Below, one piece after another: positions 293 to 60,554 of a stretch of 64,000 nucleotides of DNA. This DNA comes from Schmidtea polychroa (lineage: Eukaryota), in the NCBI GenBank assembly GCA_044892525.1, contig CM097885.1, positions 30,382,001 through 30,446,000 on the forward strand, in the 5' to 3' direction. A model generated the notes under the pieces. It was not told the origin of the DNA. It did no database searches and was given only the letters and a program-made list of their open reading frames with translations. The first letter of the stretch is position 1. Every line of letters starts with the position of its first letter. Both the position numbers and the translations under genes were made by a program.

Positions 293-3200
293 ATGAATTC
301 TTTAATAGAAAACGTTATGAATGTCCGAGAAAAAATTCAGAAATTTGGTAAATTTTAATTTATTTATTAATTAATTTATTAATTAATTTAGATAATATTA
401 ATGAAGACAATTTAAAATCTAAGATTAAAGGAAATTTGAAAAGAAAAAGTAAACATAATTTTTAATTTATTGATTTAATTAATTAATAATTTAGGTAATA
501 CGAATAAAGAAAAAAATTATGTCAATGTGTCAATAAATCGAAATGAAAATTTACAATGTAAGTATTGATTACTTTTTATAATTTAAAGGAAATTTAATAT
601 AATTTTTTATTTAAGTAAATGTTAATATTTTTAATTTAGTAAATTTTTATTTTTTAGTAAATAAAATTTGTAAAATAATAATAATTTGCAAATTTTTGCG
701 TAAACATTTACTAAAATATTTCATTTAAATTATATTTTTTTTATTAAATTTTTATTTTATAGGTATACTTTACCCAAATTATTGTTCATCGAAAGAACAT
801 GATAATAATTGCCATTCTATAATGGAGAATTATTATACGAAAAAATATTATAATAAAACTTATTTTATATGTCCCGTATGTAAGACTAGTGACCCCGTAA
901 CATATAGCGTTTTTTATAATAAACATAAAAATCATTTAGATAGGTTTAATTTTAAAAAAGATAGTGTTTTTAAAAGACCCTCAACTATAGAAAAAAATAA
1001 TAAAAATAAAAAAATTAAATTAGATACTTCTTCTTTTGAATCCCAGGTCGGATTGCCTTTTGTGGAATCCAATGATGGATTGGTTGTCGAATCCCATGAT
1101 GGATTGGTTGTTGAATCCCAGGTTGGATTAGATAATATTTCCCTTGACTCTTGGGATGGATTAAATATAATACAAATAGGTGGAAATGTTCCAATAATAC
1201 AAAAAGATCTAAGAGGTACCCATCAAATATTAAGCTTAAATACAAGCGACTTAAATATAAAAGAAATAATATTTCCTGAACAACTAATAAAAAAATTACG
1301 AGATATTATTAACGAATTAGGCTCCGTCAAAATTCAATTCGGAATAACAATCGAATTTGAAAAAGACGGGGAAATAAAGGTTAATAATATCTCAAATTAT
1401 GCAAAGCCTTTAACTGCATCATTTTTTGATGAAGGCATTAAGGAATTAAATGAGAAAATTACTAATATTACTGAGTTAGGAAGCAGTTGGAATATAAAAA
1501 ATATCACTGAAATACATTTCACCATAACAAAAATAAGTAGGCTAAGTAGATTAAGTGGTAGGAGTTTCATTGAAACACCTACTTATCTAAAAAATAAATA
1601 TTGTTTAATTAATATAAAAAACACCGATGATTCATGTTTTTTATATAGCATTTTAGCTATTTTAAAATATGATGAGGTTAGTAGTTATGCTAGAAATAGG
1701 ACATCCAGTTATAATTTATCTGAATTAATATATAATCCATTGGACTTACCCATGAAATTAAAAGATATTAGAAAATTCGAGGCCAAAAATCCAGGCTTAA
1801 TAATTAACGTTTTTTCTTATGACAATAACAAACAATTAATAGATAATTACGTATTAAAACACCCACATTTAGATATTATACATCGTTCCAAAGTTTTAAA
1901 TGGAACTGTAATTAATTTACTATTATTAAATAAAGGAAACAATTTCCATTACGTTGCTATAAGTAATTTAAATAAGTTAATGAATTGTCATATCAACACT
2001 AGTTGTCCTACACGCATACGTTCATTATGGTGCCATCGGTGTTTGAATGGGTTTAATAATAAACACGCACTAGAAAAACATGAAATATTATGTAAACGTA
2101 ATCAATTAGGAACAACTCTTTACACCTTCCCTCAAAATAAATTATTACAGTTTACTGACTGGTCGAAAACAGTAACTCCTCCTTTTGTAGTTTATGCAGA
2201 TTTTGAGGCTATTTTACCTTCTGATAATGATCATTTCCAACGACACATGCCAATATCTGCTGGTCTTTTACTTGTAAATAACTTTGACGGATCTAAATCT
2301 TATCAGCAGTTCATAGGTTTAGATTGCGTCGAGAGTTTTTTAAGTGCTATAGAGGATATAGCATTAAATAAGGTTCTTCCTTTTTATTATAAAATGGATA
2401 GGAAACCTATGATGAAATTAACAAAAATTGAACAACGTCAATTTGTTAGTGCATCTGTTTGTTATCTTTGTATGAAATCTATCGTCGATCCTGTTAGAGA
2501 TCACGATCATTTTACGGGGAAATACTTGGGTGCAGCTTGTAGCACATGTAACGTAAATAGGAAAATAAATAAAATTTTGCCTATCGTATTTCACAACTTG
2601 AAGGGATACGATATGCACCATATACTTAAATATGGATTAAATAAATTTAAAAATTGGAATTTAGGGTGCATCCCAATAACTACGGAAAAATTTATATCTT
2701 TGATTGCGCATTTAGGTAAAATTAGCCTAAGATTCATTGATTCGTATCAATTTGTCAATGATTCTTTGGCTAAAGCAGTCAAAACTTTGAATTCTTTGCC
2801 TTTTACTAATTCTGCTTTTTCTGGCACCATAGTAAGTGAAAAAGGAATCTTCCCTTATAATTTCGCCACTTCTTTAGATATTCTCCAAACTACTTATGAA
2901 TTACCACCAATCTGGGAGGGTGTCACTGAGCTTGAGTATGAAAAAGCTCAGGAGATTTGGGTAGAAACTAATTGCGTAACTTTATTAGATTATATGATGA
3001 TCTACCTAAAACTTGATTGTTTTCTTTTGGCTGATTTCTTTCATCAGTTTCGGTTGAAATCCATTGCTCACAATAGATTGGAACCATTGAATTATTTCGG
3101 AATTCCAGGCATGTCTTGGTCTTCTGCATTAATGTCTTTAAATGAACCAATTGAACTCATAACTGAAAACGAAATGTTTAGCTTTTATGAGGGTGGAATA

Positions 3201-4634
3201 AGAGGCGGTCTTACTTTTGTGAATAAGCATTACGTAAAAACCGACGAGAACACTGAGTTACTATATATAGATATTAATAATCTTTATGGCTGGGCTTTAA
3301 GTCAATCATTACCTTGTGGCGAATTTTGTTGGGTTCTTGATGGATTTGATAAAATAATGGATGAATGTAGGAATTTAAATCTTGAATCTTTGTCTTATGG
3401 ATACACACTTGAAGTTGATCTTGTAATTCCTTCTGAGCTTCATGATAAGTTGGATGATTTCCCTGTAGCTGCTGAAAAAATGAAACCTGCTGGGTCTAAG
3501 GTTGAAAAATTATTATTAACTCATCTTCCAAAATCTAATTATGTTATTCATTGGAGATTATTAAAATTATATTTGGAACTTGGTGTTAAAGTAACACGTG
3601 TAAATAGGGGTGTAAGATTTAAGCAATCACCAATTTTTAAAAAATATATAGATACAAATACCGAATTAAGATCAAAAAGCGTAAATAGCTTAGATAAAAA
3701 TTATTATAAATTGCTAAATAATAGTTTATACGGCAAAACAGTTGAAAATTTAAAGAGAAGAATGAATCTTCGTCTTTGTACAACTGCCGGTAAATTAGTT
3801 AAATATTCGTCAAAACCGACTTTTAAAAAATCTATTAAAATAGCAGATAATTTAATTGCAGCACTATTGAATTCCGATTCTATATGTTTAGATAGACCGA
3901 GTTACATTGGTCAATCTGTACTTGATCTATCTAAACTTAGAATGTATGAATTGCAATATAAGGATCTGGAATCATTTCGCAATGAGTTTAATTGTAAAAT
4001 TAATATCGTTGCAGGTGATACAGATTCTTTTTTCCTCGAAGTCATTAACTGCAAACTTGAGGTTCTTTTACCTGCAATGGTTCGAGATAATTTATTGGAT
4101 ACTTCCAATTACAATAGTTGTCATTCCTTATATAGTAAGAACCTTGATTCAGTCATTGGAAAGTTCAAAGACGAGAATAAAGGTCTTAAATATAAGGAGT
4201 GGGTTTTTCTTAGACCTAAATGTTATAGCTTGTTGGGTGATGAGGAAACAAAAAAGGCTAAAGGTGTAACATTGAAAGGTAGTGACATAAAACATCAGTC
4301 ATACCTGGATTGTTATAACACTAACCAGATTTTTTCGGTTCCTCAGACTAAAATAACAAGCAAAAATCATCAAATTTTTACAATTAAAAACACAAAAATA
4401 GCACTAACTAACAAAGATGACAAAAGGGTTTGGGTGGGGCAAAATACTAGTCTTGCATATGGGCATGTAAGATTAAGTGAATTAAATATTGGAGAAAATG
4501 TTGGAGAAATTGTTGCAGAAAATGTTTCAGAAAATGTTGGAGAAAATGATGGAGAAGATGAGGAAGAATTAAATGAAGATTTTGGAGAAGATGACATCGA
4601 TATCGATGACGTTATTTTGTCCGATGAGGACTAA
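293..4634 (+). CDS. Polinton/Maverick-type protein-primed DNA polymerase B (pPolB) with N-terminal zinc finger, OTU-like protease region and HNH/EndoVII insert; predicted spliced, ~1348 aa
   Basis: ORF 822-4634 has ExoI YADFE, EndoVII-like CYLC..VRDHDHFTGKYLGAACSTCN, pol motifs YIDINNLYG, KLLNNSLYGK and AGDTDS, and NTDDSCFLYSIL...FHYVAI. Manual splicing of exons 293-347, 392-448, 495-557 and 763-4634 (GT-AG, all phase 1) keeps the frame open from ATG 293. The family call is strong; the 5' exons are less certain. Confidence 0.92.
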
Positions 4635-4821
4635 TTTTATTGAATAAATTTTATATCTTTACATTTGTTATTTGGTAAATTTTTATGTTTGTTATGTGTC
4701 TAGTTCATTTTTATGTGTTTAGTTAATGTTTATATGTTTTGTTATGTGTCTAGTTATTTTTATGTGTTTAGTTAATTTTTTATGTGTTGTATAGTATTTG
4801 GTTGATATATTATTAATATTA

Positions 4822-4825
<4 letters not shown>

Positions 4826-4883
<58 letters not shown>
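4826..4883. repeat. (TTA)n microsatellite
   Basis: Directly visible. Confidence 0.95.
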
Positions 4884-4884
4884 T

Positions 4885-6010
4885 CATAAAAATTTTCATT
4901 AAAAATTATCTTAAAAATTATTCTATTAAAATTTCCATTAAAAATTACCATTGAAAATTATTCATAAAAATTTCTATTAAAAATTACTTAAAAAATAATT
5001 CATTAAAATTTCCATTAAAAAATTTCAATTCTCAAACACCTTCTATTTTTGTTAATAAATTTAAAAATCTTACTTTAATTTACTTATTACATTACTTTAA
5101 TTTACTTATTTAAAAATTATTACTTTAATTTACTTATTTAACTTTAATTTAAATTTTTTTTTACCATTGATTATTTAATTTTAAAATTTGGACCTTAATT
5201 AACTTTAATTTAATTTTTAGAACCATAATTTACTTTAATTTTAAAATTTTTGACCATTATTTACTGTAATTTAATTTTTAGAACCATTATTTACTGTAAT
5301 TTAAAATATTTGGACCATTATTTACTTTAATTTAATTTTTTAGAACCATTATTTACTTTAATTTAAAAATTTGGATCATAATTTACTTTAATTTAAATTT
5401 TTGGACTGTAATTCAAAAATTTTGACCATAATTTACTTTAATTTAATTTTTAAGAACCATAATTTACTTTAATTTAATTTTTAAGAACCATTATTTACTT
5501 TAATTGAAAAATCTTAGCCCATAATTTACTTATTTAGACCATAATTTACTTTATTTCAAAAATAAATCTGAACCTTGATTTACTTAAATTTTTAGACCCA
5601 TCATTTACTTTATTTTTAAATTTTAGACCCATAATTTACTTTATTTTAAAAATTTACTATGCGTTTTTTAATGTAAACCACCTTTTCTATTGAAATTCTC
5701 ATGACCAAGAAGATCCCCTCACTATAGTGTGAAAAATCCATGCTTTTTTATTGAAGACTACCTTTTTCTATTGAAATTCTCAGGACCAAGGAGACCCACC
5801 CAAATAATATTTATCCTTGGCTTGTTTATTGAAAAAAAAAAAAAAAAAAAAAAAATTTGTATTTAAAATCCCAGAAAACATTGGGCATTACGGCAACAAT
5901 TATGTAATCAAAAAATGTCTACGGAAAAAGTTATGCAATCAAAAGTTTGCAACATTTTTTACCCCCCCCCCCTATTGCTGCCGCGGGCCACTAACTCCCT
6001 ACTATTATTA
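4885..6010. mobile_element. Probable right terminal/subterminal region of the Polinton carrying pPolB 293-4634
   Basis: Array of ~28-30 bp degenerate repeats (gaaccataatttactttaatttaa) at ~5180-5655 and a duplicated ~35-bp unit at 5680-5795. The end reads TAATAATAGTAGGGAG on the minus strand, resembling an AGT-repeat Polinton terminus. The partner TIR is not in the window. Confidence 0.55.
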
Positions 6011-10983: not shown

Positions 10984-11976
10984 TGTTGGGTTTTATGATA
11001 TCAAGATCAACCGTTGGTTACTCTGACTCCACGTGTTCCAAAATCAATAAACACAAACTCCCAACGTATATTTGTTTTATAACAATTCACAACTCTCAAC
11101 AATTAATCACACTATTGGTTAATCACAATTCTTACACAATTTAAGATCGAACTCCGCTCTGGAAGGTCTCGGCCTTGTACGATTTAAAAAAAATTGGTTT
11201 CACCTTTTGCTTGATTCCGCTCTCTGATCCGAACTCTTTTAATATTCCTTTCTGACTCCCAAATTCCTCTTATAATTCCTTTTTCCTTTTATTTTATTCC
11301 TCGAACTCCTATCGTCTGTTTCTTCGTGTCCCTACCTAAGGCTATCGCCAATTATGTGAATTTTGAGTTTCCTTATATACTCCCATAATCGTTGTAATTG
11401 CCCCGTTTTTGACCTAATTGATTTTGACTTCTTCCGCTATCATTCCCTAATTGACTATTTTTGTTGACCCTCTTCGTAATTCCCCGTCTTTTGTTTACCC
11501 TCGTTTATCCGGTTGTTTGGATAATTGCCCTCTGAATTCCTCGTTTGTTTACCCTTCCAAATTGCCGTGCTCGGGTTTTCTTCATCGCTCGGGTTCTCCA
11601 TTGGCTCGGGCTTCCCATTAGCTCGGGTTTCCCATTAGCCAATTAATTAATTAATTAATATTTTACGTTTTTCCACATTTGTCTGTTTTACGACCCTTTC
11701 TACACATTTTCTAACAATTTCTTGCTCACTGTCTTCTTCACCATCCCTTAATCTACCCCTCTCCCGTTTTCCAGCTTCAATTTCGATAACTTCTCACTTT
11801 ATTCCACTTCCTCCGGTTTGCGCATTTTCCCATTTCATCTCTGATTGTACCCTTTTATAGTTCTGTTTTTATCATATCTTTCTTTGCCATTGCTTCTCTG
11901 CTTGACCGCCATTCAATTTCGGCTTTCCTTTTAATCTGAACTATATAATTTAATAATTTATTTTCAAACCTCAACA
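10984..11976 (-). repeat. LTR of element A (993 bp)
   Basis: TGTTG...CAACA termini; PBS on one side and polypurine tract (PPT) AAGGGGGGAGATA on the other; 11732-11976 is repeated at 13570-13814. Confidence 0.85.
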
Positions 11977-13251: not shown

Positions 13252-13571
13252 ATTCGTGCATTCTACAAACATATACTCGGCATTTCTATTTGATATACTG
13301 ATCTAGAAAAAGAATACTATCAGTTTTTCCCTGGTTCGGAATTCCTATAGAAAAGGATGTTTTGACAATGCTTCTCTATCAAACGTTTTCTATTCAAATA
13401 TCAGAATTTGGACCGACAGAAACTCACTAGTACTACTCACAGAAGAAAATAAATCTGAATATGTTAAATTAGTTTGTCAAGAGAAAATGATTGGAGCTAT
13501 TCACCAACAACTTCATAGTTTTCTCGAAGGGTTTTACGAAATCATACCCAAAAATTTGATCTCCATTTTTC
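13252..13571 (+). pseudogene. HECT E3 ubiquitin ligase (HUWE1/Tom1-like) fragment
   Basis: Translates as IRAFYKHILGISI*YTDLE...[10 protein letters not shown]...[44 protein letters not shown], with a stop and frameshifts. Confidence 0.85.
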
Positions 13572-13814
13572 TTCTTCACCATCCCTTAATCTACCCCTCT
13601 CCCGTTTTCCAGCTTCAATTTCGATAACTTTTCACTTTATTCCACTTCCTCCGGTTTGCGCATTTTCCCATTTCATCTCTGATTGTACCCTTTTATAGTT
13701 CTGTTTTTATCATATCTTTCTTTGCCATTGCTTCTCTGCTTGACCGCCATTCAATTTCGGCTTTCCTTTTAATCTGAACTATATAATTTAATAATTTATT
13801 TTCAAATCTCAACA
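13570..13814 (-). repeat. Truncated copy (5'-most 245 bp) of the element A LTR
   Basis: Near-identical to 11732-11976. Confidence 0.92.
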
Positions 13815-13915: not shown

Positions 13916-14714
13916 CTAATTTAACCAAATATGCTGGTTTAATTCTTCAAAATTGATTCTTTTTTCCGGGGAATAAATAAGACATTTTTTCATTAATTCT
14001 TTTGCCCTATCAGAACATTTTTTAAATATAACTGGTTTAAAGTCTTCATAATCTTTCATGGTTGAATATGGCCTTTTTGATTCTAAACAACTGTAAACTA
14101 AACTTCCAAACATGAAAACCAGATTCTTTTTGACATAATAATTAACGGCTTTGAAAGTTTCTGGACCGCAGTATCCAGTCGTGCCAAGCTTTTTCTTACA
14201 CATTGGATGCGGGTTGATATTATCATACAGAGTCCTCGAAATCAATTATTTTTATTCGATAATTAATTTTGTTAAAAAATATATTTCGCGGTTTTATATG
14301 ACGATGGTAAATTCCTTTTCTTACAAGTTCCTGTAATACTATTAAAACGTTTTTCAATATTCTTTTTATACATTTCTCTAATCTTTTTTTTCGAACATAA
14401 GAATATAATTCAATCCAGTTGCCAGTCAAATGTTCCATAACTATTGAAAATTCGGTGTCGTTTTGAAAATAATTGAGAATTTTTGGACAAATTTTATTGT
14501 TATTGATTAAATTGATAAAATGCATTTCTTTAGGAATGGGAAATGGATAATTATCATTTTTAATGAATAAATATTTTAAATTTTTGTAAAAGGATTTTAT
14601 GACCACAGTTTTAACTTTTGATTTAGTTGCATCTCGATTTTCTGCAATTGTTACTTTTCCTTTGACAGTCGATTGTAACACTTTTACAAATTTATAATCA
14701 TTTTCTGAACACAT
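13916..14714 (-). pseudogene. Intronless PIM-like Ser/Thr kinase, frameshifted
   Basis: VVIKSF, IPKEMHF, GIYHRHIKPRNIF (HRD->HRH), IIDFE, GTTGYCGPE, CLIYSPEKRINFEELNQHIWL, split over ORFs 14223-14714 and 13916-14245. Confidence 0.8.
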
Positions 14715-15073
14715 ATTTCTTCACTTTTAATTAATTGTTAAAATAAAATTATAAATAGAGAATTTTTTTTAATTAAATTAATTATAATAAATTTAATTTG
14801 TCAAAATAAATATTAATAGGTGATCAAATTTTCAATCGAGTTATCAATGTCTTTCTAGATTTACTAGACAAGATAATAAATTTCTAATATGGACACTCTA
14901 AAAACATCTGGTGTTTAATAAATGTTATCATAAGTAAATTTGATCAATTATAGATAGAGCACACTGACTCAATTGGGTATGATTCGTTGATCTGATCGGA
15001 CTTTATCAGACTACAAGGTGATGGATCATATTCTTTGTTCTACAGTCTGTCAATAACGTCATGTCAAGGTCTT

Positions 15074-16232
15074 TCAAACTTGTAAGTGCACTGGCTCAAA
15101 TGACCCTAACTGTTGTTCTTCAATTGTTCTTGTAAAAATTAAAATATCGTCTAAATACACCATAACTCCTTCTTTCCATAGATCTTTCAATATTTTTGTC
15201 GTTAATTCTTGGAATGTACCCGGTGCCGCCGCAATGCCAAAAGGCATTCTATTAAAACAAAATTGCCCTTCTTTAGTAGAAAATGCTGTCTTTTCTTGCG
15301 ATTCTATGTCCAATTTCACTTGATAATAAGCGTTCCCAAGGTCTATAGAACTAAAGTACTTAGATCCATGTAATGTATCTAGAATTTCTTCTACATTCGC
15401 CATAGGAAAAGCTTGTCTTTCAGTAATCTTATTAAGCTGTCTAAAATCTAAACAAAGTCTGATATCTTTTTTGTCTTTTTTCCACACACATACTAACGGC
15501 GTATTCCAAGGTGAATTACATCTTCTTATGATATCATTATTTTCTAAATTTTTTATAGCAGCATTTATTTTCTCCTCTAAATTGATGGGTTGTCTTCTGG
15601 GTTTTATCATAATTGGCTCTTCTTTTGTGATGATTTTATGTGCAATTAAATCAGTACATCCAATATCCCAGTTATTAGCCATAAAAACACTTTTATTGTT
15701 TTTAACAATCTCTAACAGTCTTTTATTTTCGTTTAATCTTAGAATTTCTATTGCTTTTTGACATCTCTCGTTATCTGTAATCTTTTCCCCAAATTAAGCT
15801 TCTATTTCACACACAAATTTATTATATCCTTCTTCATTTTGCTTGATGTAGTTTAATTCAATTCCAAACTCTTTCTGCAATTATATTATAAATACTATTA
15901 TAAATGTTATTTTTCTTTCCATATTACCAATTCTAACATCAATATATATTTTTCCGATTGTCTCTAATTTACTATCATTTGCACATCTTAACATCTCATC
16001 TGTCTTTATGATTTTCACATTCACTAATTTGTCCACAACTGCTTCTGCCATTACATTTACTTTTGCTCCTGTATCTAGTAAACATTCCATTCTATAGCCC
16101 TGAATTTCAAGAGTTGTACTCGGTCTACCTTGCATTTTGTCATAACTCAATTGCGGTCGTTTCCATTCATCTTTAGTGAAAATATTTTGCTCCTCTGATA
16201 TTTCATTAATCCACCCAATTTCCTTTCTCTCT
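15074..16232 (-). pseudogene. Ty3/Gypsy element B pol: protease and partial reverse transcriptase
   Basis: CLLDTGAKVN; SPWNTPLV, RLCLDFRQLN, IDLGNAYYQV, RMPFGI, VYLDDILI; frameshifted and truncated after YLDD. Confidence 0.92.
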
Positions 16233-16475
16233 AGTAGTATGTAGTAAGGACTCCAACTCACTTTCAAGGTCATGGAATATCAAGATCAAATATAGACCAA
16301 TCGAATCATTTATTTTTTAAATTAACATTTTATTTAATTACTTCTTTTTAATTTTATTAATTAATTATTTTATGATGTTATATTTTAATTACTTACTTTA
16401 GTTAATTTTTAATTTATTACATTTAATTAATTTATTAGTTTATTAATATTTTATTTTAATTACTTACGCTTTTTA

Positions 16476-16523
<48 letters not shown>

Positions 16524-16527
16524 TTTA
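16233..16527 (+). repeat. Left TIR of the mini-Polinton
   Basis: Reverse complement of 21083-21374; I see one substitution and a different (TTA)n length. Confidence 0.93.
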
Positions 16528-17037
16528 ATTTTATTTAATTACTTCTATTTTTTTTTCTCTTTAATTTTATTAGTTAATTATTTTATGATGTTATACTTTA
16601 ATTACTTATTTTAGTTAATTTTTAATTTATTACATTTAATTAATTAATTTGTTTATTAATATTTTATTTTAATTACCAACGTTATTTAATTATTATTTAT
16701 TTTATTTATTTATTTTTTAATTTTACATTATATTCTAACAAGAGCGTAAATTATAACAATAATATTTCAATTTGAATAAAATTTTAATTAGTAATTATTC
16801 AATTTGAATAAAATTTTAATTGGTAATTATCATAAAATAAAGCTGTGTTAATTTAAATAAAATGGGCATTAATTTTTCAAAACAAAGCAAAGTTTTTCAT
16901 GATAAATAATAATTCTTACTTAAAACTAATTATCTAAATTAATTGGACAAATGAATTATTAAATGATAAAACATATTTTAATTAACGAAGTCAAATAATT
17001 CACAATATATATTTTATTATTCACATAAATTTAATTG

Positions 17038-19930
17038 TTAAAGTTCTTGTTTCGATTTGCATTCATTTGTAGACGGAGCAGTTGCGATATGCATTTGACG
17101 AATCTTATAGTGACCGTAGGCATAGCTTTCATTAGAATTGAACCAATACCTTTTATCATCCAAACATTGGAGAGCTCGTTTTTCTGTAATGAAAGTATAC
17201 AACTGATGATTAACACTTCCTATTCTCTTTTGTTGGATGCTCACTGTTCCACCATCAGTATACACTTTTTTATAGGCTTCATGGGTGATATTAGAATTTG
17301 TAAGACTTATTCCTTTGGCTTTTAGAGTGTTTTTATCTCCTTGGAGTGAGTAGCACTTGGGTCGAAGAAACACCCATTCTTTATATTGATTTCCTTTATT
17401 CTCATCCTTGAATTTCCCGATTACCGAACAAATTTTATCTGAGAACAATGGATCAGTCACCGGATAATTTGAAGTATCTAGGAGCCCATCGGCAATCATT
17501 TTTGGATACAGTTGTAAGCGTAAATCAACATTTTTACACTCTAAAAAGAAGGAATCTGTGTCACCGGCTACGATATTAATTTGACAATTGAATTCTTCTC
17601 TATAACTCTGTAGTTCTTTATATTGAAACTGGTACATGCGAAGTTTAGATAAATCAAGTACGGTTTGTCCAATATACATTGGTCTATCTAAACACACCAT
17701 TTCCTTATCAAGTATAACAGCAATGAGATCATCCGCAATCTTGATGCTACGACGAAACATAGGATTACTACAATAAGTTATCAATCTTTTGCTTTTGCTG
17801 CATAATCTCAAATTTATACGTTTCTTAAGGTTTTCCACGGTTTTACCGTATAAACTATTGTTCTTTAACTTATAATAATCTCGCTGAAATGAATCTGTAC
17901 TAGCTGCTCTCATTTGAGTATTGTAATCAATATAGCGTTTGAAAATAGCTACTTGCTTGAATTCTACAGCACGATTAACTTTTGTGACTTTTGCGCCGTA
18001 ACTCAACCACTCTGTCAAAACTCTACCATTAACTACATAGTTTTTCTTAGGCTCATGAGTTAACAACAGCTTTTCAACTTTACTACCAGGTGGATAACAA
18101 AGCTCAGGAGCTATAGGTAAATCATCTAGCTTATCTTGTATACTATCAGGAATGACGATGTCAACCTCTAGAACATATCCACGATCTCCATCAAACTCAT
18201 CCCCATTTGCACATCTTTCAACAATACCATTCATTTCAGTCTGATCATTTATCCATCTAAATTCACCAATAGGAAGTTTTTGCGACAGCGCCCATCCATA
18301 TAAATTATTAACATCTAGGTATGACATTTGTGTTGATTCATCAGCTTCAACATGATGTTTGTTGATAAATGTCATTCCACCACGAATACCAGCTTCAAAT
18401 AAAAGGTAAAGCTCTGGATCTTGAATAAGTTCTACCGGTTCAGGTAACTGTTTAATAGCTGATGCCCAACTTAATCCGGGTATGGAAACAAACGATAAAG
18501 CCTCAAGTCCATCTTCGTCAAATGTTTTTTCTCTGAAAGCTTCAAAAACATCGGCCAACACAAAAACATCCAACTTGAGATATACTAGCATGTAATCTAG
18601 CAATGTCTCACAGTTATATTGTCGCCAGATTTGATTTGCATGTATATAATCTTCTTGACTAACTCCCTCCCAAATCGATGGTAATTCTGTTATTGACTGT
18701 AAAACATCCATTGACGTAGCAATATCATAAGGAAATATGCCTTTACCAGTTATTAGATGCGAATTGAAAATCTTTGAAGTAAGTGGAAGACGTGGCAAGT
18801 TTTTTGATAAATTTGCCAAGCTGCTATTTAAAAATTGTAAAGAATCAATGAATCTAATTCTTCTGCCTTTCGATGTCGCTGTAAGTGTGAGAAACTTTTC
18901 TGTTGATTGAGGAATAACAATTAAATTCCAATCTGGGAATTTTCCAATTGCATATTTTAATATATGATGAATGTCATATCCACGAAGATTATGAAATACA
19001 ACAGGTAAAGACGGATTGATTCTTCTAGCCAAATTACAATCTTGACACGCTGCTCCGAGATATTGACCAGTAAAATGATCATGATCTCGAACAGGTATAT
19101 TGATAATCTTTTTACAAAGGTAGCAATGAGTTTGAGTCGTGAATTCTTCCTGCTCTTCCCAAGTGAGTTCCATCATTTCCTTTGATCCATTAATTTTATA
19201 CCACGGATAAACTATGTCTGTAGCTATATCATCCAATGCTTGTATGAACTGAATGATACAGTTTTTCCCAACAAATGTTTCATTTCGGATCGGACAACCT
19301 TGATGGAGAAGCACAAATTCAGATGCAATCGGCTCATGTTTTTGGAAGTGTTTGTCATCTAGAGGTAATATCGATTCAAAGTCCGTGTAGACAACAAACT
19401 GCTGTTTTATAGTTTTACTCCAATCTTTAAATTCGATATATTTATTCTCTGGCATTGAGTATAGAGTCGTACGCTCCACATTCTTCCTACAAAGACCTAT
19501 ATGTCTTTCAAAAGCAGGACGTTTTTGAAACCCATGAAGACACGTATGACACCAATGTGATTGGATTCTGACTCCTTCTACTCTATCTCTGTAATTCAGC
19601 AGTCGATCGAGATTAGTTACAGCCAAAAAATGATAATTTAATTCTAAATTTAGTTAATATTTTTAATGATTAAAGGAAATATTACCTTCTTCAATCAATA
19701 GGAGATATATCTGAGATCCCGTCGAAGTACTTCTATATACCAAGTCAATGAACGGATTCTTGAAAATATCATTAGTTTTTTGTTTAATTGGATCTTTATT
19801 ATATTTGAGAACATTGATCGCTAGATTTGGATTAATTGCTTCAAATTGGCAAATGTTAACCAACTTCATCGGAAACCATTCAAATTTCCATTTTAAGTCT
19901 TAAAAACAAAATTCAATGATTTATGACATT

Positions 19931-20019
<89 letters not shown>

Positions 20020-21081
20020 CCACTTAAGTTATATTTTGTTGTTCTTTCTCTATTCCGACGTATATCATCATAACGTAACACAGCTAGTATGCTATATAAA
20101 AAACAGAATTGATCATTGTTTTGAACATTAACTAAAGCCTGAGAGTTTTTCAGGTAATTTGGCGTTTTAATGTAACTTGAACCTAAGTAATCTCTTGATT
20201 TATATATATAATAATGTAAATAATCTTACCAGATACATGTATTATGTCTGATAATTTAGTTAAAATCATAGTAACTTCTAATATTTTATGAATTCTCCAC
20301 CCACTACTTTGTTGAGTGTATTTCTCCAACTTTTCTTTTAATTTTTCAATTCCATCATTAATAAATGAAGATGACATTGTAATTGCTTTATTCGACAAAC
20401 ACCATTTTTTAATTTCACCATCCTCTTTGATAAACTCTGCATAAAGTCCAAATTGGATTTTTACTGTCCCCATTCGTTGAATATGATCTTCTATTTCTTT
20501 GATGAGACAATCTGGAACAACAATGTCAGGAGAATTAATTGCAGATACATCGCTTGTCAATTCAACACGAGAACCGTTTAAGTCAGACTCCCGACGTGGA
20601 CACAATTGTATGTTAGAGTCTCCATTTCCGTAAAATATTGACTTTCGTTTTGTGGTGCCAGAGTTTTGTCTAACTATATTTATAATTAATATTAAACAAC
20701 TTAAATAACATAACTTGTAACATATTCTTTAATCTCCTTAGGATCGTATGATGTATTCATTTTCGATTGTACTATAAAAAATTAATAATTGTTAATAGTA
20801 GAAAGAGTATTACTTTTAGTGATCATCCTGCTCTTCGTTTCTTCGAATCTTCTAAGATGGTGTCCGTGTTGTCGTACAAACATTAACCACCTACCTGGTG
20901 TTATAATGAGACATTCCGAACATATGTAACCCGATAAGGTAGAGTCATTTATCTTGAAATATGATGATTCATTATTTTCGTATCTTTCTATTGCTTTTAA
21001 TTTCTCACTAACTGGAATCTTTTTGTTTTTTTTTAATTTTTTGTTGTAAACATTATTGTTTATTGTCAGGGAATTTATTTC
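17038..21081 (-). CDS. Second pPolB, spliced; open frame of ~1249 codons, start codon not identified
   Basis: Exons 21081-20814, 20771-20715, 20673-20230, 20182-20021, 19898-19686 and 19643-17038 join in frame through GT-AG phase-1 introns. The product is colinear with pPolB 822-4634. Motifs YTDFE, VRDHDHFTG, YLDVNNLYG, KLKNNSLYGK and AGDTDS are intact. Confidence 0.9.
19937..20017. repeat. (TA)n microsatellite inside pPolB intron 19899-20020
   Basis: Directly visible. Confidence 0.95.
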
Positions 21082-21082
21082 C

Positions 21083-21086
21083 TAAA

Positions 21087-21131
<45 letters not shown>

Positions 21132-21374
21132 TAAAAAGCGTAAGTAATTAAAATAAAATATTAATAAACTAATAAATTAATTAAATGTAATAAATTAAAA
21201 ATTAACTAAAGTAAGTAATTAAAATATAACATCATAAAATAATTAATTAATAAAATTAAAAAGAAGTAATTAAATAAAATGTTAATTTAAAAAATAAATG
21301 ATTCGATTGGTCTATATTTGATCTTGATATTCCATGACCTTGAAAGTGAATTGGAGTCCTTACTACATACTACT
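21083..21374 (-). repeat. Right TIR of the mini-Polinton
   Basis: Ends ...ACTACT, followed by TSD CTCTCT. Confidence 0.93.
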
Positions 21375-22100
21375 CTCTCTAATTTATCTTCTGCCTTTTT
21401 AATAAATTTATAAACTTTTTCATTTACTATTTTATTATTATATTCTGCTTCTTTAATTTCATTATACTCTTCTTGATTGTTAGGATTATTATTATTATTT
21501 ATTAAAGATCGATCAGCATTAAAATAACTATAACATTTAAAATTATTTAAAGGAAACTTTTTAAAATTACAAATTTTATTACATAAAGGTTCTACATTAT
21601 ATATATATATATATATACGGATTATTTACATTATTAAAATTATTATGACCAATATTTACATCAATATCAAAATTACCTAGTATATTGCTCCGATCATTGC
21701 CTCCCGTGTCGAAGCATGTACTTTTGCGTGCTGAATATCCTCATATTTGTCTTCTGCATCATCTGAATACTCAAGTGGCATCGTCTCATCATTAGCTTCA
21801 ATTGCTGCAATTGTTCTTCCTGGATTGTTGATCTTTTGTTGATAGCTTGTGGTTCGATGGGCATAATAATTATTTTTTCTCATAATTGAATTAGTTTGAA
21901 ACTTCCTTTTTTCCAATTTTTTACAGCAGTCGATCTCCTTGTGTCCATGTAAAAGACATCTCTGGCATTGAATCGTTGCACATTCTCGCCGTACGTGGCC
22001 TTCAACTCCGCATGCAAAACACGTCATTTTCTTTTTCATTTGGAATTCTCGACTAACATGACCAGTTTTCTTGCATGTCCAGCATTCCAATTGTCGGTTA
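21375..22100 (-). pseudogene. Ty3/Gypsy element B: gag C-terminus (zinc knuckles) and start of the pol frame
   Basis: CWTCKKTGHVSREF, CFACGVEGHVRREC and CQRCLLHGHKEIDC in ORF 21677-22090; frame 21500-21375 continues into the protease ORF across the Polinton insertion. Confidence 0.85.
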
Positions 22101-23534
22101 CTGACGTTTCGCTGCTTATTAATTTGGCTTTTATTTAATTAACTCTACTTCGTAATTATAATTGTTCAACTATCCTAATTACGTCAAATGTTTGTGACAT
22201 TTATTTAGTTTGAATATTTTTGTTTGTTATTTATACCTGCCACCGAAATCAATTTCGCCGACGGTGAGAAGTGTTAGGGTGACGTTTTATATGATTGTTT
22301 GAGGTGACATACTCATCATTTGCACTGTATCGTGGAGTATCAGGTAACTAATAATTTTTTAATGCAGTTTTCAGAGTTTGCAAGAACTAGCTCTGGTATA
22401 CAGATAATCAGAAGGACGTTGATCCAAGGATTTGTAAAAGTTGGAATTACTGATGCTTGTTCTCGTTATTCTCCATCGGACTGTACTGTCGCATTGTCAA
22501 CTCTCAGTATTTCTTCGCTTGTGGATCTTAACCAATCCATCGCCGCCCCAACGGGTTCTCAATGTCATGGAGCTACAGCGATTCATATCCTTTGCGATCA
22601 TCGTGAACCATGATCTGGTCATATTGGAAATTCGTCTATTGATTTTTCAATGTGTGATTTTATTTATTTAACCGAGTTGGATGGATTGAGTTCCCAAGCT
22701 ATCTCCGTGTAGTTCTTGCATCCATAGTCTGCTTGACCTTGGATTTTCAATCACTTCGTATTCTTCTGGATTCAAGTTTCCCGTTGGGATACCATATTCG
22801 AACTTCTCCACTTGTGGCCATCTGATTCAAATAATATTTCCACTGACGCTGGTTTCTTATTGATTCTTCTGTTTCTCTTGGCTCTTTGTCTCTCTGCTTT
22901 TCCTAATAAACTAGAGTTTCTTTTGCTCTGCAATCTCGTTCGATTGGCTATATTATCAATTTTTTCTTGCTTTAATAATCTCTATTGAATTTCACTGTGT
23001 TTTGTTGGCCAACGCCTTAATTTCTTGTTATTTAACTTTTTTTCGTTTTTTCTTCTGTCCGAGTTTGATTCTCTTAATTTCTTGTTTGATTTTTTTTATT
23101 CCTTCTCTTGATTTCCTGACTTCCTTCTGAATTGTTTGCTTTATTCTAAAATAATTAACACTCCTAGTACATATCATAATTTTTTATTCGCTTTATCCTA
23201 CCCATCGTTTATTTCCCTGTTTTCTCCGTATTTTATACTGATCTTTACTCGTTATTTCCCTAACTTCTCATTGTTTTTTTCTAATTCACTGTAAGCTTTT
23301 ACTTTTCGCTACTAACCTCCCTTTGAATTTAAGTCCATTTTAAATTATATATATAGTCGTGTAATGTACAACCTTGTTCTTTTTTATGTTTAAACAAGGG
23401 GACGGAACGTTGGTCCATTTCGTTGGGCGTAAGCCTCGTTATAAAATTAATTAAAGAAACTATATAGCGATAATTTACTATGGTGAATTATCGCTATATA
23501 AATATGGATAAAAGAAATAAAATCGATAGAAAGA

Positions 23535-25437: not shown

Positions 25438-26091
25438 TTATTCTAATTTTATTTTTTTCAAAATTGTATTATCTTCTTGATTTTCGAATTTTCTTTTTAA
25501 GGTCATATTTTTGGTGGTGTTTAAACAATTATTGTTATTTTTATTCATTTTGATCCAATAATAAACGGTAGGAATTGATACTTGTAAAGATGAAGCAATA
25601 CTAGATAAAGATTCATTATTTTCGTATCTTTCTATTGCTTTTAATTTCTCACTAACTGGAATCTTTTTGTTTTTTTTTAATTTTTTGTTGTAAACATTAT
25701 TGTTTATTGTCAGGGAATTTATTTCCTTAATTTTTTGATACGAAGAGGCATTATTTGCTATTGTTTCACTTTTTTGCAATCTTTGAATTACTTTTAACTT
25801 TTCACTTGTTTTAAGGCAATTTTCTTTAATTTGAGCTAATAATTTATCTTTAATTTTGATCCAGTATAAAATGGATGATGAAGAAATGTTATAATTTAAA
25901 GCAATATTTACTAATTTTTCACCGTTTTCATATTCTTCAATTGCCTTTAATTTGTTATCGTTGCTCAGCTTTGTTATTCTCATTTTTTTTGAATTTTGTG
26001 GATAAATATTTTTTTGTGAAAAGTTAAAAATGTTATTAGTATCTTGCCCTTTGTTCTCATTTTCCAACATATCAATTGCTTCTAATTTCAT
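25438..26091 (-). CDS. Intronless protein with repeated CENP-B-N/pipsqueak-like helix-turn-helix units (217 aa)
   Basis: KLKAIEEYENGEKLVNIALNYNISSSSILYWIK; EKLKVIQRLQKSETIA; EKLKAIERYENNESLSSIASSLQVSIPTVYYWIK; no DDE domain follows. Confidence 0.75.
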   Translation of the reverse strand: MKLEAIDMLENENKGQDTNNIFNFSQKNIYPQNSKKMRITKLSNDNKLKAIEEYENGEKLVNIALNYNISSSSILYWIKIKDKLLAQIKENCLKTSEKLKVIQRLQKSETIANNASSYQKIKEINSLTINNNVYNKKLKKNKKIPVSEKLKAIERYENNESLSSIASSLQVSIPTVYYWIKMNKNNNNCLNTTKNMTLKRKFENQEDNTILKKIKLE

Positions 26092-26667
26092 TTTTGGTGA
26101 ACTTTTAAAGGAATTTCCGTCTAAGAATTTGTTTGTTATTTTTCCTAATTATTTTAATTAAATTGTAATAAATATTAATAATTTATTATTTTCACAAAAA
26201 TCTATTGGACAAAAATACATTTAAAATTTTAGTATTCAACGATAAAGATTAAAAAGGCTGTGCCGAAAATTCGAGAATATTAAAAAAACATTGATATCTT
26301 TAGTGATTCATAAACAATTTTTTAATAAATATAATGTCAATAGATAATCTAAAATTTATTAGAATCCTTTAAAAGTAAAATTATTTGTTCATAGCATTTT
26401 TCGGAATTCGGTGTCAAAAAGAATTTTCATATTTAGAAACAAAATGAAAATCTTCACCAAAATCTCAGTTTACGACTTATGACAAGGAACAAAGATGAAA
26501 TATGAAGCCATTTCTAAGTAATAATTATTAATAATATTTATTAAAATCTACAATTAAACTCTTTTATTTTCGATTATTATTTAAACAACTATTAATATTA
26601 TTCAAATAAAATATTTTTCTTTCGTTAAGAATCAACTCCTGTATCAAAATAAAAATATTATTCTAAT

Positions 26668-28645
26668 TGAGATTGACAAGGACTATCTTATAGTCAAAAT
26701 ATTTTTCATTAAATACATTATTCGCAGCAAAAGGCTTAAATTATCACTTAATTGTTTTAAATAATAAATGCTGCTACCAAGAAATCATCACTTTATACTT
26801 TCCAAAGGCCTGAGCCGGGCAAAATACTTGGAAATACGGAATTTACCTAGAATCAACGAGAAAATTGCGAAATTATGCTGACAAATAAATTTCCTTCGCC
26901 GATGTAAGGAAACAAAGATATATCCTACAACAATTGACAACATCCACTTACCTGAGATTCTCAACAAAGATCAAAACATCAAGAGAAATAAAAACATCAA
27001 AGAGTATATTTTAACAAATTTAATTAGAAGTATGTACGGAGAAACTCATCGGGAACAAAAGAATCAAGAAAACATTTTGAAAACGTATTTGAATAACCAC
27101 CAAAAAGAATTGATCTACGAAGTACAAATACAAGCTTTCATGACAGCAGAAACACATTATTCCCTGCGATTTGACAAAAGAATCAAACACTTTTTGAGAA
27201 AAAAAGAAGCTCAAAGCAGGCCTTGGTGCGAACAATGAAGCACTGGGCGGAAACAAAAGCATTACAGTGAATAGAGAAAACAAAAACTGGTAACCGACCT
27301 CACAAATTGTCTATCCGAATGTGAAAAAGGATTACTTTCACTAGGACTAAAGTTCAGTATAAACAGAGAAATAGACGAAGCAGCCATTCGCAATTTCAAA
27401 ACAGCTCTTTGTCACATTGCGTACCAAATCAAAAGAAACAATGCAATACCTCATGAAAATAACGAAGAAAAGCTCCCAATATATATAAACACAGATAAAC
27501 TCTATCATCCAAATCTTTCTGCAGAATTAGATTCAACACTTTCAAAGGTTTGCCACAAAATCCTGGAGATAGTTGAGAAGGATAAAGAAAACCATATCTC
27601 TCAATCCTAACGAAAAATGAACAAACAATATTAAAATTCTTTATAAAGAAACCATAGGGTTACTTACCAAGTTACAAAGGGGAGAATTTTGCATTATAGA
27701 AAAAAATCGTTACTGTGAAGCTGCTTACGAACACCTCGGCAACATTGAAACATACAAGAAAGTCAGCAGCATGTCCCCAAAATGAAGATCAACAAAGTAT
27801 GGAAGGCTATTGCTCTGGAAATGGGACTCAATAACAGAATAACCAAGAGCTTCGTCACAAAAAATTCTGATTTTCCCAACGTCTACCACCTAATAAAAAC
27901 CCATAAAGAGGGTCCTGCTATCAAAATTAGAACTATAGTATCCAACAAAAATGGGCCAACAACTAAAACAAGTTGGCTCCTTACAAAGATCTTGAAACCA
28001 TTATTGGACACGATACCACACCATCTTCAAAGCAGCGATACCATGTCAGATTCAAAGAATCAATTATCATTATAAACAGACGGCTAAAAATCAATACTAA
28101 AGAAGAAATCAATGAAATCATCAATTTGATCTGTTGTCATTGACCATGAGAATAACTGATAATATATAAGAAATATAATAAATTTAAAAAAGTAATTATT
28201 AAAATAATATATAAAAAGATAGGATTTAAAAATCAAAATTGACACATTTATTGAAATATTTAAATCGCGTATATAAGTAGTTATTGGAGGCTTTATTTTA
28301 TAAATATTTAAAATATTTTGAAATATTTTATTGGAGTAGGCTTCTAGGGCTAATTATAGAAGCTTTAAAAATTTTTAAATTTTAGTTGGTGTCTTTTGGA
28401 ATTTTAAATGAGATTTATTTAAATTTTAAATAAAATTTTTAAAAATTTTTAAAAGTTCAGAAAAAGAAAGTATATCATTATATTATATTTATAACCAATG
28501 AGAAGTAAAAAATAAGAAATAAAAGAAAGATAGAAATGTATGTTCGGGAAGAAGATTGCTAAATTCCAGGAGACTGACAAGGACTATCTTAAAGTCGAAA
28601 ATCTTTTCATTAAATTTGCAGCAAAAGGCTTAAATTATCACTTTA
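26668..28645 (+). mobile_element. Degenerate Penelope-like retroelement with direct pseudo-LTR remnants
   Basis: FLRRCKETKIYP, LSECEKGLLSLGLKFS and VYHLIKTHKEGPAIKIRTIVS match Penelope N-terminal and RT motifs 1-2, with stops and frameshifts; ~80-bp direct repeats at ~26668-26752 and ~28570-28645. Confidence 0.8.
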
Positions 28646-30178
28646 TTGTTTTATTATTATTATAAATGTGCATCTAAATTTATCTTTAAAAATTATTTCA
28701 TTAAAATTTTTATTAAAAAATTTCATTTCTCAAAAGTTATTATTACAATAATTTTTAAATTTTTAACTTTAATTTACTTATTTAAAATTCTAGACTACTT
28801 TATTTTTAAATTTACTCTTAAATTTACGTAATTTAACCCTTATTCACCAAATATATCCATTGATTTAATTATTTTTAAAATGTATCACTTAATTTATCTA
28901 TTTAACCAATAATTGCACGTGGTCATTTGGTTGTAAGTACTTGGTTGTAAATAATTAGTAGCTGATAGTTGGTATCTGTTTGTAAATATTTAGTTGTTAG
29001 TAATTGGTAGTTAGTTGTAAGTTGTAGGTATGTGGTTGTAAGTGTTCAGTATCTAGTTGTTAGTTGGTTGTTAGTACTCGGTTGTTGAATTATTATTATT
29101 ATTAACCTTAATTTACCTAATTAATTTAGACTTTAATTTACTTATTACTACCAATTCTCATCATAATTCAAAATTTACTACTTAATTTTAAAATATAGTC
29201 CTTCATTTACTTATTTAACCAATAATTTCATGTGGTTATTGATTAATTCACAAAGATTTAAATCATAGTTAATTCGTCCGCATAGTCCTACGACTATGCC
29301 GACTACCAGGATGGATTTATGCGCCATATTCTTTGGTTAAACACCATTTGTTCACTTTTTTTTGTTCGACTCTCGACGACTCTTTATCTCTGTAACGCTT
29401 CAGTGATCAACAAGACTAACTCACTAAGATGTTCTTGACCCATCGAATTACGAAGATAATTTTTGATTTATTAATTAAAATATATCATTTTTTCAGGCTT
29501 GAAAATGAAACCCCCGCAGTTGCGGGCCCTAGGGGTCCAATTTACACCATTTTTGTATCAAACTAGATTTAAAAGATCAAAATAATCATTGAGATTATGT
29601 TGGATCATGGGATCAAAGTTTTCACAAGGTTGAAAGTCATCAATATCAAAGGTCCAATAACATAAAATTTTTAGAATTAATTTTGCATATTTAAAAATCT
29701 TCTTTAAATCTTTTTACATTTTCGAAATTTATGATTTCAGTCAGGCGCTTACCCAGGACGACTCACGGGCTTGAGCCACCCAAGACCATAAAAAATCATT
29801 ATATTTATTGTGACGCTTGTCAAATTTTAATGCGTGAAATTATCCTAAGTAATAACTGGAAACAATTAACTACAAAAGAGCTAACTAAGTGCTCAGGACA
29901 ATAAGATTTGATAAGCAGCGGCGTTGACTGTATAAAATGAGCGGCACCGTTTATAATAAATACAATGAATTTGACGCCATTCCTATTCAAAATGAATATT
30001 TTATTTTCTCATGTATTATATATTGAAAATAAACTGGACACTTAAAAACTTTTTTCTCAAGTTGAGCCTTCCCATGCAAAAATCCTGGGTTCGCACTTGA
30101 TTTCAATACATTTATTTCTACTTGACTCATTTACATGACTCTATGTGCAAATGTTAAATATATATATATATATATATA

Positions 30179-47648: not shown

Positions 47649-48367
47649 TGTTTTTCAGTCAAATGTTTATTTAAAATTTTGGAATTGTTTTCATTAATAA
47701 ATTTTTTCATGTTTTTATTAACCAATTTACGATTTCCCCTGATATCAATGAAGGTATTTTCTTTTCATCGCGCTTAGTTCCTTTGCAAACAGATAAGGTA
47801 ATGAAATTATCAACAAATTTTTAATATAAAAACAACTATGGTGTTGGAGCAGTTTATCTATTGTTTGATGTTCATTCTGTAAACTCTCGTTCCACTGTGA
47901 CTTAAGACCTTTAAGGATGTTGACGCGCCTTAGTGCCCTGAATAAGTCTATTGTTCATATTACGATATCATATTCGCAATATGTAATTCGAGGGACAAAG
48001 GAGCGCAACAGGCAGGTCGTTACAGCTGAGATCATAGCATTAAACATTATGGCTCTTCTCACGGAAGTTCAATAAGCAAAGTTAGGCGAGCATATAAAAT
48101 AATAAACTTAACTGCTCTATAAAATCGTAAAATAAGGAATGTTACGGTGACATTTAATAATAGACATAGAAATTAACAAGTTCAAAAGCTGAAATGATTT
48201 TAAAGAACAAGCGAGTAGGTCATCGAAAGCCAGGCCGGGTCCTCTGTAATTACAAACTGATATATTTTTTAAAAAACATTTGTTTTAGTTATCATATTAT
48301 TACTTATGAAATTCCATGATACATAAAAAACTTAAATTTTTAAAATCATTTAATTATATAATAATGC

Positions 48368-60547: not shown

Positions 60548-60554
60548 AAAATCA

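Follow-up and report, generated by a model that had tools for sequence, protein, structure and literature searches.

The 5142-bp element at positions 16233–21374 of the window (the whole 64-kb stretch of DNA analysed here) is a Polinton copy inserted into a Ty3 element. Its pPolB gene is split by five likely introns, and it probably lost its interior after insertion and was patched with 118 bp likely copied from a nearby gene. The 5.1-kb structure is likely one damaged copy and not a new polymerase-only element. As one broken copy, it is most likely of little weight, and its gene structure matters more.

Insertion site and element ends

The insertion of a Polinton/Maverick copy into the gag-protease linker of a Ty3 element is real. 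Both ends of the element begin with AGTAGT, and they are flanked by a perfect 6-bp target-site duplication (TSD), CTCTCT, at 16227–16232 and 21375–21380, as the original prediction stated; the left duplication is based on the sequence and on empty-site contigs in runs X1 and X5. The left terminal inverted repeat (TIR; 16233–16527, + strand) ends after a (TTA)15 run, and the right one (21084–21374, − strand) ends at a (TTA)14 run. The arms 16233–16523 and 21084–21374 were aligned over 291 nt with one substitution, and the difference in the runs brings the left arm to about 295 nt, in agreement with the near-identical repeats of about 295 bp first described. The ends of Polintons/Mavericks carry short AG/AGT terminal repeats, and the terminal features of Polintons found here are TIRs with an AGT-type motif and a 6-bp TSD. 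The proposed Polinton origin and the integrase-made duplication both stand; a longer member of the family, using a retroviral-type integrase, would have made this TSD.

The interrupted Ty3/gypsy element lies on the − strand, with its protease and RT side, itself broken, at 15074–16226 and its gag side with zinc knuckles at 21381–22138. Pfam matches were obtained for zinc knuckles in one flank and for aspartyl protease and RT in the other. Removal of the insert had been claimed to restore the Ty3 frame, and this was borne out when each flank was translated singly: the frame was recovered from both, the translations were in phase, and the TSD was found at an identical codon offset on the two sides. 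The empty site was detected in contigs with the uninterrupted site, in which loose ends before 21374 match the left flank (25 in X1 and 4 in X5). In addition, the TIR end at 21374 runs on into unlike flanks in 25 X1, 16 X5 and 5+4 X11 contigs (agreement 0.45–0.61).

Three features had been overlooked earlier. Besides the HTH-derived filler and the five gaps resembling introns, the AT-rich TIR unit of ~210 nt is repeated in tandem as a second, degenerate copy (16525–16734, + strand, 82%). This copy is present at the left end only, which suggests that the right arm was cut short.

The pPolB gene and its predicted introns

The TP, vOTU, exonuclease and palm domains of pPolB are all present, spread over six predicted exons, and the native start is missing. 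Every exonuclease and polymerase motif lies inside 17038–19653, an 871-aa ORF, as had been noted for the catalytic motifs. The accompanying statement that pPolB is an intact gene was not upheld: this ORF is the last exon only, and no in-frame ATG is found ahead of the first zinc motif in this copy. A paralogous pPolB at 729–4634 (+ strand) of the same window, which is 54% identical and uninterrupted where the element has introns, served as the comparison sequence. The 871-aa ORF is short by about 380 N-terminal residues relative to this paralogue, and the missing residues are encoded upstream of it, across three reading frames.

All six exons are on the − strand. The remnant of the first exon (20814–20965) contains the CxxC...H motif and is cut at its 5′ side; an internal ATG in it could still start a TP, vOTU and polymerase protein. 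Exon 2 (20715–20771, 57 nt) precedes exon 3 (20230–20673, 444 nt), which encodes the terminal-protein domain. This domain is predicted to be little-finger-like from a structural match of its model to 4ir1_F, of the PolIV little finger fold (Z 8.2, rmsd 2.6, 94 aligned), and such a fold is reported for Polinton terminal proteins (10.1101/2024.03.18.585575). The conserved vOTU Cys motif is in exon 4 (20021–20182, 162 nt) and the vOTU body in exon 5 (19686–19898, 213 nt), while exon 6 (17038–19643, 867 codons; PF03175 by Pfam, E 1.5e-31) contains the vOTU His strand, the exonuclease and palm motifs and the stop codon. An OTU-like fold was predicted by modelling in the homologous region of the paralogue.

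Outside pPolB, the element contains its TIRs, 510 bp at 13% GC, in which no stop-free frame exceeds 45 codons, at the left end, and the 118-bp filler, with no other content. There is no room in it for an integrase, ATPase, protease or capsid, as originally predicted, and its length compares with ~15–20 kb for a complete Polinton/Maverick. When 379 ORFs from 25 long loci, rve and A32-type ORFs included, were used as queries, all 76 matches fell in the two pPolB genes; the tblastn control for capsid and protease was weak, with 0 of 26 scanned long-locus ORFs named as either.

The five gaps between the exons are very likely spliceosomal introns, as predicted from their sequences. All five are GT-AG and in phase 1, and they vary in length from 41 to 122 nt: intron 1 at 20772–20813 (42 nt), intron 2 at 20674–20714 (41 nt, with a weak donor, the least certain of the five), intron 3 at 20183–20229 (47 nt), intron 4 at 19899–20020 (122 nt, containing a ~90-nt (AT)n run) and intron 5 at 19644–19685 (42 nt), all on the − strand. 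The GC content of the gaps was 6–17%, versus 28–35% for the exons. The four internal exons are all stop-free with a length of 3n, and removal of the predicted introns yielded a single stop-free frame matching the uninterrupted homologues. The chosen GT-AG pairs were the top-scoring among 7, 12 and 2 open pairs at the three testable breaks, and GT..AG occurred in 60 of 27643 AT-rich control windows. Among the family contigs, both indels listed within the pPolB span fall in predicted intron 3, and 8 of 16 exonic variable sites were synonymous against 20% expected (p=0.008).

In the alignment with relatives from metagenomes, three intron positions are clearly shared: introns 3 and 5 fall in columns where the relative L003 also has introns, and intron 1 coincides with introns of both L014 and L019. 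By column, 417 and 552 are shared with L003 in well-aligned sequence and 129 with L014 and L019; 177 is shared with L003 where the alignment is poor, and 476 is found in the element alone. The alignment around introns 1 and 2 was poor, and these two were placed by eye. Some relatives have the shared positions and their sister branches lack them, which would mean repeated precise loss, or gain in parallel, in a DNA-replicating element. The tree used for this was built quickly from 50 of 51 rows (P0006 being without the region), and its figure of one change only contrasts intron rows with distant full-length rows, with no clade shown.

We also considered the 5′ breaks as decay through frameshifts and microsatellite insertion. 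This reading was rejected because contigs of four runs, as well as relatives, show the same breaks, all of them GT-AG and phase 1. Of 17 joints in contigs, none of the 15 listed matches splicing of an intron. Contigs of X11 and X16, which are only guessed to be RNA and in X11 also include genomic flanks, read through intron 2 unspliced. A loose end in X11 at 20722, near the intron 2 donor, was rejected as a splice since its letters mismatch the next exon. The family would make its TP-vOTU-exonuclease-palm pPolB through host splicing of a nuclear transcript.

The filler, contig depth and the history of this copy

The right TIR is joined to pPolB by the filler at 20966–21083 (− strand), which is identical in 118 of 118 positions to 25610–25727, 4.6 kb from the insertion site. 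The latter lies in an HTH/CENP-B_N-type ORF (25438–26148, − strand, 236 aa stop to stop), the likely donor. Filler and pPolB meet in complex sequence at 3 shared letters, and the other junction abuts the (TTA)n run. A contig of X16 tracks exon 1 up to 20968 and then continues with 58 letters unlike the window. For the HTH ORF, no homologue was found at E<=0.001 among 1921 candidates, and the ORFs of the 25 long loci gave no match. That it is a regular gene of the element family is contradicted by the low depth of the filler and by the X16 continuation. Elsewhere in the window, a 245-nt near-perfect local duplication has carried 11732–11976 into a HECT-like frame at 13570–13814; it suggests that local copying happens in this region, though it could share any assembly artefact that affects the filler.

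The summed contig depth of the pPolB 5′ part, which does not equal copy number and from which a filter drops some contigs, was 2.6–7.5e5 in X1 and 0.3–2.2e5 in X5. The filler bin 20979–21031 showed 186 and 33, respectively, about 1000-fold below the TIR and pPolB 5′ part and matching single long contigs, which had depths of 142–722 (X1) and 29–132 (X5) among those listed. Part of the filler (21016–21140) was skipped as repeat, and the zero depth at 21032–21137 was not used. At 20143, 20442 and 20919, the window letter accounted for at most 164, 632 and 229, respectively, of an X1 depth of 4.7–7.5e5, with another letter dominating; all three differences change an amino acid. These window-specific letters are as expected of one unamplified copy. 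Run X1 may be the source of the window itself.

These depths bear on the claim that the element transposed as a unit, which was not supported: the arrangement TIR, filler, pPolB is at single-contig depth in a family about 1000-fold deeper. A break or abortive gap repair would have deleted a stretch that begins at the (TTA)n run in the right TIR and reaches the first pPolB codons, and template switching with 1–3 nt of microhomology would have copied the neighbouring HTH gene. Repair in place after insertion is the simplest account because the filler copies DNA 4.6 kb away. A single copy with deletion after integration had been named as the refuting case, and the present one comes close to it: the junction looks single-copy, but no full-length allele at the CTCTCT site was seen, and no parent element among close relatives recovered with 4.5 kb or less. 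Although all domains are kept, this copy is probably silent because its native start was lost, and the proposed self-replication of the element was not supported. Enzymes of the family, acting in trans, could nevertheless still recognise its two ends.

Formation of the whole 5142-bp unit elsewhere, for example beside the HTH gene, and its transposition into Ty3 with a borrowed integrase is quite unlikely. Such an event would fit the perfect TSD, the intact ends and the TIRs one substitution apart, and a short local hop would also land near the filler donor. However, single-contig depth applies to both the filler and the copy-specific letters, the 64-kb window contains neither a donor copy nor another TIR end, the gene has no native start, and one more step is needed than for repair in place. 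An assembly artefact is very improbable; it would mean the collapse or mis-joining of a long element at its microsatellite, plus a 118-bp piece wrongly placed from the nearby gene. One junction abuts the (TTA)n run, nearby DNA matches the filler at every position, and no bridging contig was found for the filler junctions among the pieces (26 of 8737) and loose ends (19 of 376) listed; but two separate mis-joins 118 bp apart are required, the pPolB join is in complex sequence, and the second local duplication suggests local copying, though it could come from the same artefact.

A further reading concerns the family. It may be polymerase-only (TIR, spliced pPolB, TIR, maybe with long non-coding arms) and integrated in trans by other Mavericks, this copy being a further damaged member whose 5′ end was lost locally; we regard this as unlikely. 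The TIR depth is just ~2–4 times the pPolB depth in X1, and most such ends may carry this polymerase, but these ratios are uninformative on genes outside the depth comparison. Many close pPolB homologues are on contigs of ~4–5.7 kb; others, however, are on contigs of 11–19 kb, and 12 of the 15 listed members of the P0018 cluster (55% identical) are on contigs of 10.9–16.3 kb, known by length alone. None of the 15 relative loci examined has a TIR pair; they stop near the gene, and such ends fit assembly breaks at AT-rich repeats. Polintons without polB can stay mobile, according to 10.1101/2025.02.07.637071. The 871-aa ORF found no relative among viral contigs, and the alignment query found 14 loci at 24–33% and 35 in prokaryote bins at 23–36%. 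The metagenome search kept 80 of 464 matches with 28 of 64 parts scanned. No close relative complete with its ends was found among the metagenome, prokaryote-bin or alignment-found loci. There is a slim chance that high-copy Polintons lacking capsid and integrase exist, with a host-spliced TP-vOTU-pPolB, linear self-replication in the nucleus and a borrowed integrase, and that a 5′-damaged member is seen here. If true, such a polymerase-only family would represent an extant transitional form linking Polintons with linear plasmids.

Comparison with known systems

"Alpha adintoviruses" are Polintons with an Alpha-type (OTU and pfam03175) pPolB (PMC8502044), and the Polinton domain order is given as TP-vOTU-EXO-PALM (10.1101/2024.03.18.585575). 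The element resembles Alpha-type Polintons in its AGTAGT ends, few-hundred-bp TIRs, 6-bp TSD, PF03175 match, predicted little-finger-like TP, OTU-like fold (modelled in the paralogue region) and pPolB pointing at one end. It differs from them in its length of 5.1 kb and in having no integrase, ATPase, protease, capsid or native start. Cytoplasmic linear plasmids of fungi (pGKL type) and transpovirons are bound by TIRs. Like these, the element is capsid-less with a pPolB or pPolB-derived replication gene (10.1101/2024.03.18.585575); unlike them, it has been integrated, with a TSD, and expression of its gene would depend on splicing in the nucleus.

Partial Polintons of C. elegans retain a TIR together with the pPolB end, and in some of them pPolB lies close to TIRs with no integrase in the vicinity, according to the available part of 10.1101/2024.01.15.575659. 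The present copy likewise retains this end, but what it lost is a clean internal piece, replaced by filler, and its two TIRs and TSD remain. The pPolB of the nematode belongs to another group, and that part of the paper does not mention introns. Maize Ds-del and Ds2, derivatives of a TIR transposon by internal deletion (PMC3260210), also have intact TIR ends and an interior swapped for filler from elsewhere in the genome; Ds is a hAT cut-and-paste element, and many Ds2 move as families, in contrast to the single-copy-looking junction here.

Intact vertebrate Mavericks are without introns (PMC8097293, citing Kapitonov and Jurka 2006 for the same point), whereas pPolB here is split by five predicted introns. 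In the main texts of openly accessible papers, we found no intron-bearing or polymerase-only Polintons except the dinoflagellate introner-containing Maverick/Polinton-like elements (10.1101/2025.03.18.643946), which share spliceosomal-type introns with our prediction; PMC11296320 and 10.1101/2023.08.22.554363 mention introns in other contexts only. The dinoflagellate introns are introners, young and mobile, which for the most part were acquired after integration (10.1101/2025.03.18.643946). Those predicted here are instead short, AT-rich, all phase 1 and restricted to the TP/vOTU region, with positions common to elements ~50–55% identical in protein. If Polinton polymerases of some animal lineages have old spliceosomal TP/vOTU introns, nuclear transcription and splicing would be obligatory for them, and active families would be misread as dead or "terminal-protein-less" in ORF-based screens. 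Phase 1 is shared by all 15 predicted introns examined, a uniformity that calls for explanation.

Insertion site and gene content

The element, a Polinton/Maverick copy spanning 16233-21374, lies inside a Ty3/gypsy retrotransposon in eukaryotic DNA (window GC, 30%). The arms of its terminal inverted repeat (TIR) could be aligned over 291 nt with a single substitution and with a (TTA)n run one unit longer in the left arm, and CTCTCT was present at both borders. When each flank was translated separately, the Ty3 frame quoted in the original prediction was recovered, with the same codon offset of the target-site duplication (TSD) on either side, and Pfam placed zinc knuckles, aspartyl protease and RT around the insertion. 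The uninterrupted site was found in contigs of two studies, in which loose ends before 21374 matched the left flank (25 in the public sequencing run X1 and 4 in X5). Because of the TIRs, the CTCTCT on both sides, the in-frame flanks and the uninterrupted-site contigs, the TIR-bounded insertion claimed by the original prediction is real.

Beyond the polymerase span, the element contains nothing but its TIRs, a 510-bp stretch of 13% GC and a piece of 118 bp. A search of the window with the ORFs of 25 long Polinton-like loci (379 in total), a set that took in rve and A32-type ORFs and in which capsid and protease ORFs were not identified, gave 76 matches, every one in either pPolB gene. The element is thus a real Polinton insertion but not a complete Polinton.

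Exon-intron structure of the pPolB gene

The 871-aa ORF had been taken as an intact pPolB, and this did not hold. The second pPolB of the window, a paralogue at 729-4634 that is 54% identical and open across 1301 codons, matched four more pieces upstream of the ORF, spread over three frames. The five gaps between the pieces are all GT-AG and in phase 1. Gaps 1 (20813-20772) and 2 (20714-20674) were placed by eye, while gaps 3 (20229-20183), 4 (20020-19899, with a long (AT)n run) and 5 (19685-19644) break conserved sequence, and there the chosen pair scored highest against the paralogue among 7, 12 and 2 open pairs, respectively. The GC content of the gaps was 6–17%, as compared with 28–35% in the coding pieces, and each of the four internal exons has a length divisible by three and no stop. 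As a rough null only, 60 of 27643 control AT-rich windows of 40-50 nt had both a GT start and an AG end.

Three metagenome relatives (L003:180-1176, L014:481-828 and L019:685-979) together carry ten similar predicted gaps of 40-53 nt, all GT-AG, in phase 1 and in the N-terminal part. Gaps of L003 coincide with those of the element in two well-aligned columns of the alignment, 417 and 552, and in the poorly aligned column 177, and the gap at column 129 is common to the element, L014 and L019. Twelve reference proteins were unbroken across columns 417, 476 and 552. Of the 16 variable sites that family contigs show in exons, 8 were silent, against 20% expected (p=0.008), and both indels listed within the gene span sit in gap 3. 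The five gaps are very likely spliceosomal introns, as predicted from these sequence features. No contig with a splice was seen, and an intron fits none of the 15 joints listed out of 17; contigs of the runs X11 and X16 cross intron 2 unspliced, where the RNA nature of both runs is a guess and X11 contains genomic flanks.

The predicted fold of exon 3 has four long strands and two helices (mean pLDDT 79.8), and its best structural matches were little-finger domains of Y-family polymerases (4ir1_F, Z 8.2, rmsd 2.6, 94 aligned). The 4ir1 structure also serves as a comparison for Polinton terminal proteins (TP; 10.1101/2024.03.18.585575). In the model of the homologous paralogue region, the first half gave little-finger matches and the second half OTU (Z up to 7.0, rmsd 3.3, 95 aligned). 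The Z values of these models are middling; the matched families are nonetheless those expected. Exon 4 carries the conserved Cys motif of the vOTU, and exon 6 opens with its His strand. Since the TP and vOTU Cys parts sit in upstream exons, the 871-aa ORF by itself could not prime replication. The predicted spliced gene would comprise TP, vOTU, exonuclease and palm, and would therefore be an Alpha-type PolB in the sense of PMC8502044.

A quick 50-row tree, made by a short search with deeper forks weakly settled, put the element, the paralogue, L003, L014 and L019 together in a single supported group (28 rows). Within it, L003 is not the sister of the element but joins L014 and L019 with support 100. 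Because these two lack the two introns common to L003 and the element, the pattern requires that introns were lost precisely more than once or gained in parallel. According to PMC8097293, intact vertebrate Mavericks are without introns, in contrast to the five predicted here. Dinoflagellate Polinton-like elements are described as containing introners (10.1101/2025.03.18.643946). Neither conserved introns in the pPolB of animal Polintons nor a polymerase-only family turned up in the mainly open-access papers searched. The lasting value of the element is its intron-split TP-vOTU-pPolB gene.

Origin of the 5.1-kb structure

The 5' end of the element pPolB is damaged. Its earliest in-frame ATG lies within exon 1, with none upstream of the first zinc motif, and the 118 bp (20966-21083) joining exon 1 to the right TIR match 25610-25727 without a difference, a stretch from the middle of an ORF of HTH/CENP-B_N type that lies 4644 bp away. 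Microhomology at the joins amounts to three letters between filler and pPolB and one between filler and TIR. An X16 contig tracks exon 1 as far as 20968 and has a different sequence from there on, so other copies are without filler at that place. The TIR unit occurs a second time, in degenerate form, at the left end and not at the right, which suggests truncation of the right arm at its microsatellite.

The original prediction held that the 5.1-kb unit had transposed as it stands. The TIR family does have many insertion sites, since the TIR end runs on into unlike sequence in 25 X1, 16 X5 and 9 X11 contigs. The structure that defines the unit appears to be rare, because summed contig depth differed about 1000-fold between filler and family. 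In X1 it was 2.6-7.5e5 over the 5' part of pPolB, 1.1-2.1e6 over the TIR and 186 in the filler bin 20979-21031, and in X5 0.3-2.2e5 and 33 for pPolB and filler; summed depth does not give copy number, some of the filler was passed over as repeat, X1 may be the source of the window, and 26 of the 8737 pieces were listed. The filler-bin depths match those of single long contigs in the respective runs. At three sites nearly all X1 depth was unlike the window, whose own letter reached at most 164, 632 and 229; each of these differences alters the protein. With a rare junction and a filler identical to neighbouring DNA, the structure would most simply have arisen at the insertion locus, where the TSD was made first, the interior was then deleted and the break was repaired from adjacent DNA. 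Synthesis-dependent end joining is the likely route. Deletion derivatives with filler, of the kind proposed here, occur among the maize Ds elements (PMC3260210).

A polymerase-only family as parent is unlikely. Close pPolB homologues do sit on contigs of 4-5 kb, and also on contigs of 13-32 kb; no TIR pair was found at 15 loci examined, where the close relatives were of 4.5 kb or less, and 12 of 15 listed members of the cluster of P0018, a 55% identical homologue, are on contigs of complete-Polinton size (10.9-16.3 kb). Partial Polintons from the pPolB end are described in C. elegans (10.1101/2024.01.15.575659), and insect Polintons without polB can remain mobile (10.1101/2025.02.07.637071). 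An assembly error at the filler junctions keeps a residual probability, as no contig among the pieces listed bridges either one. The element is probably one deletion derivative whose filler was copied locally, rather than a mobile mini-element, and transposition of the exact 5.1-kb unit is very unlikely.

Other features of the window and of related contigs

The HTH ORF at 25438-26148 (-) encodes 236 aa in which HTH units of CENP-B_N type recur; it may be a host gene or a transposon remnant, and none of 1921 candidates proved homologous to it. A second apparent case of local copying is a 245-nt duplication (11732-11976 and 13570-13814; 99% identical, 1.8 kb apart), whose copy at 13570-13814 interrupts a frame that we take to resemble a HECT ligase fragment. 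Two frames at 13916-14720 (-), just beyond the truncated Ty3 RT, presumably resemble a serine/threonine kinase. One X11 contig leaves the pPolB gene at 20722 with 240 unrelated letters and represents another rearranged or interrupted family copy.

The paralogue (729-4634, +) is followed by AT-rich and 31-nt tandem repeats in 4640-6010, with a possible element end near 6003, and this region is probably the end of another Polinton running off the left edge of the window. An acceptor-like AG at 762 and short upstream GT-AG stretches hint at small leader exons. AT-rich sequence at 28630-28900 is 71–77% like the repeats 3' of the paralogue (4850-5200); it adjoins a decayed non-LTR-like element at about 26800-28150, whose flanks (26669-26759 and 28570-28653) are 84% alike. 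Direct repeats of 1.5 kb at 48360-49888 and 60547-62098, which are 98% identical, 12.2 kb apart and enclose gag-like frames, are probably LTRs of a large retrotransposon. Finally, 35 contigs with Polinton-type pPolB within prokaryotic genome bins (L095-L129) are likely mis-binned eukaryotic or viral DNA.
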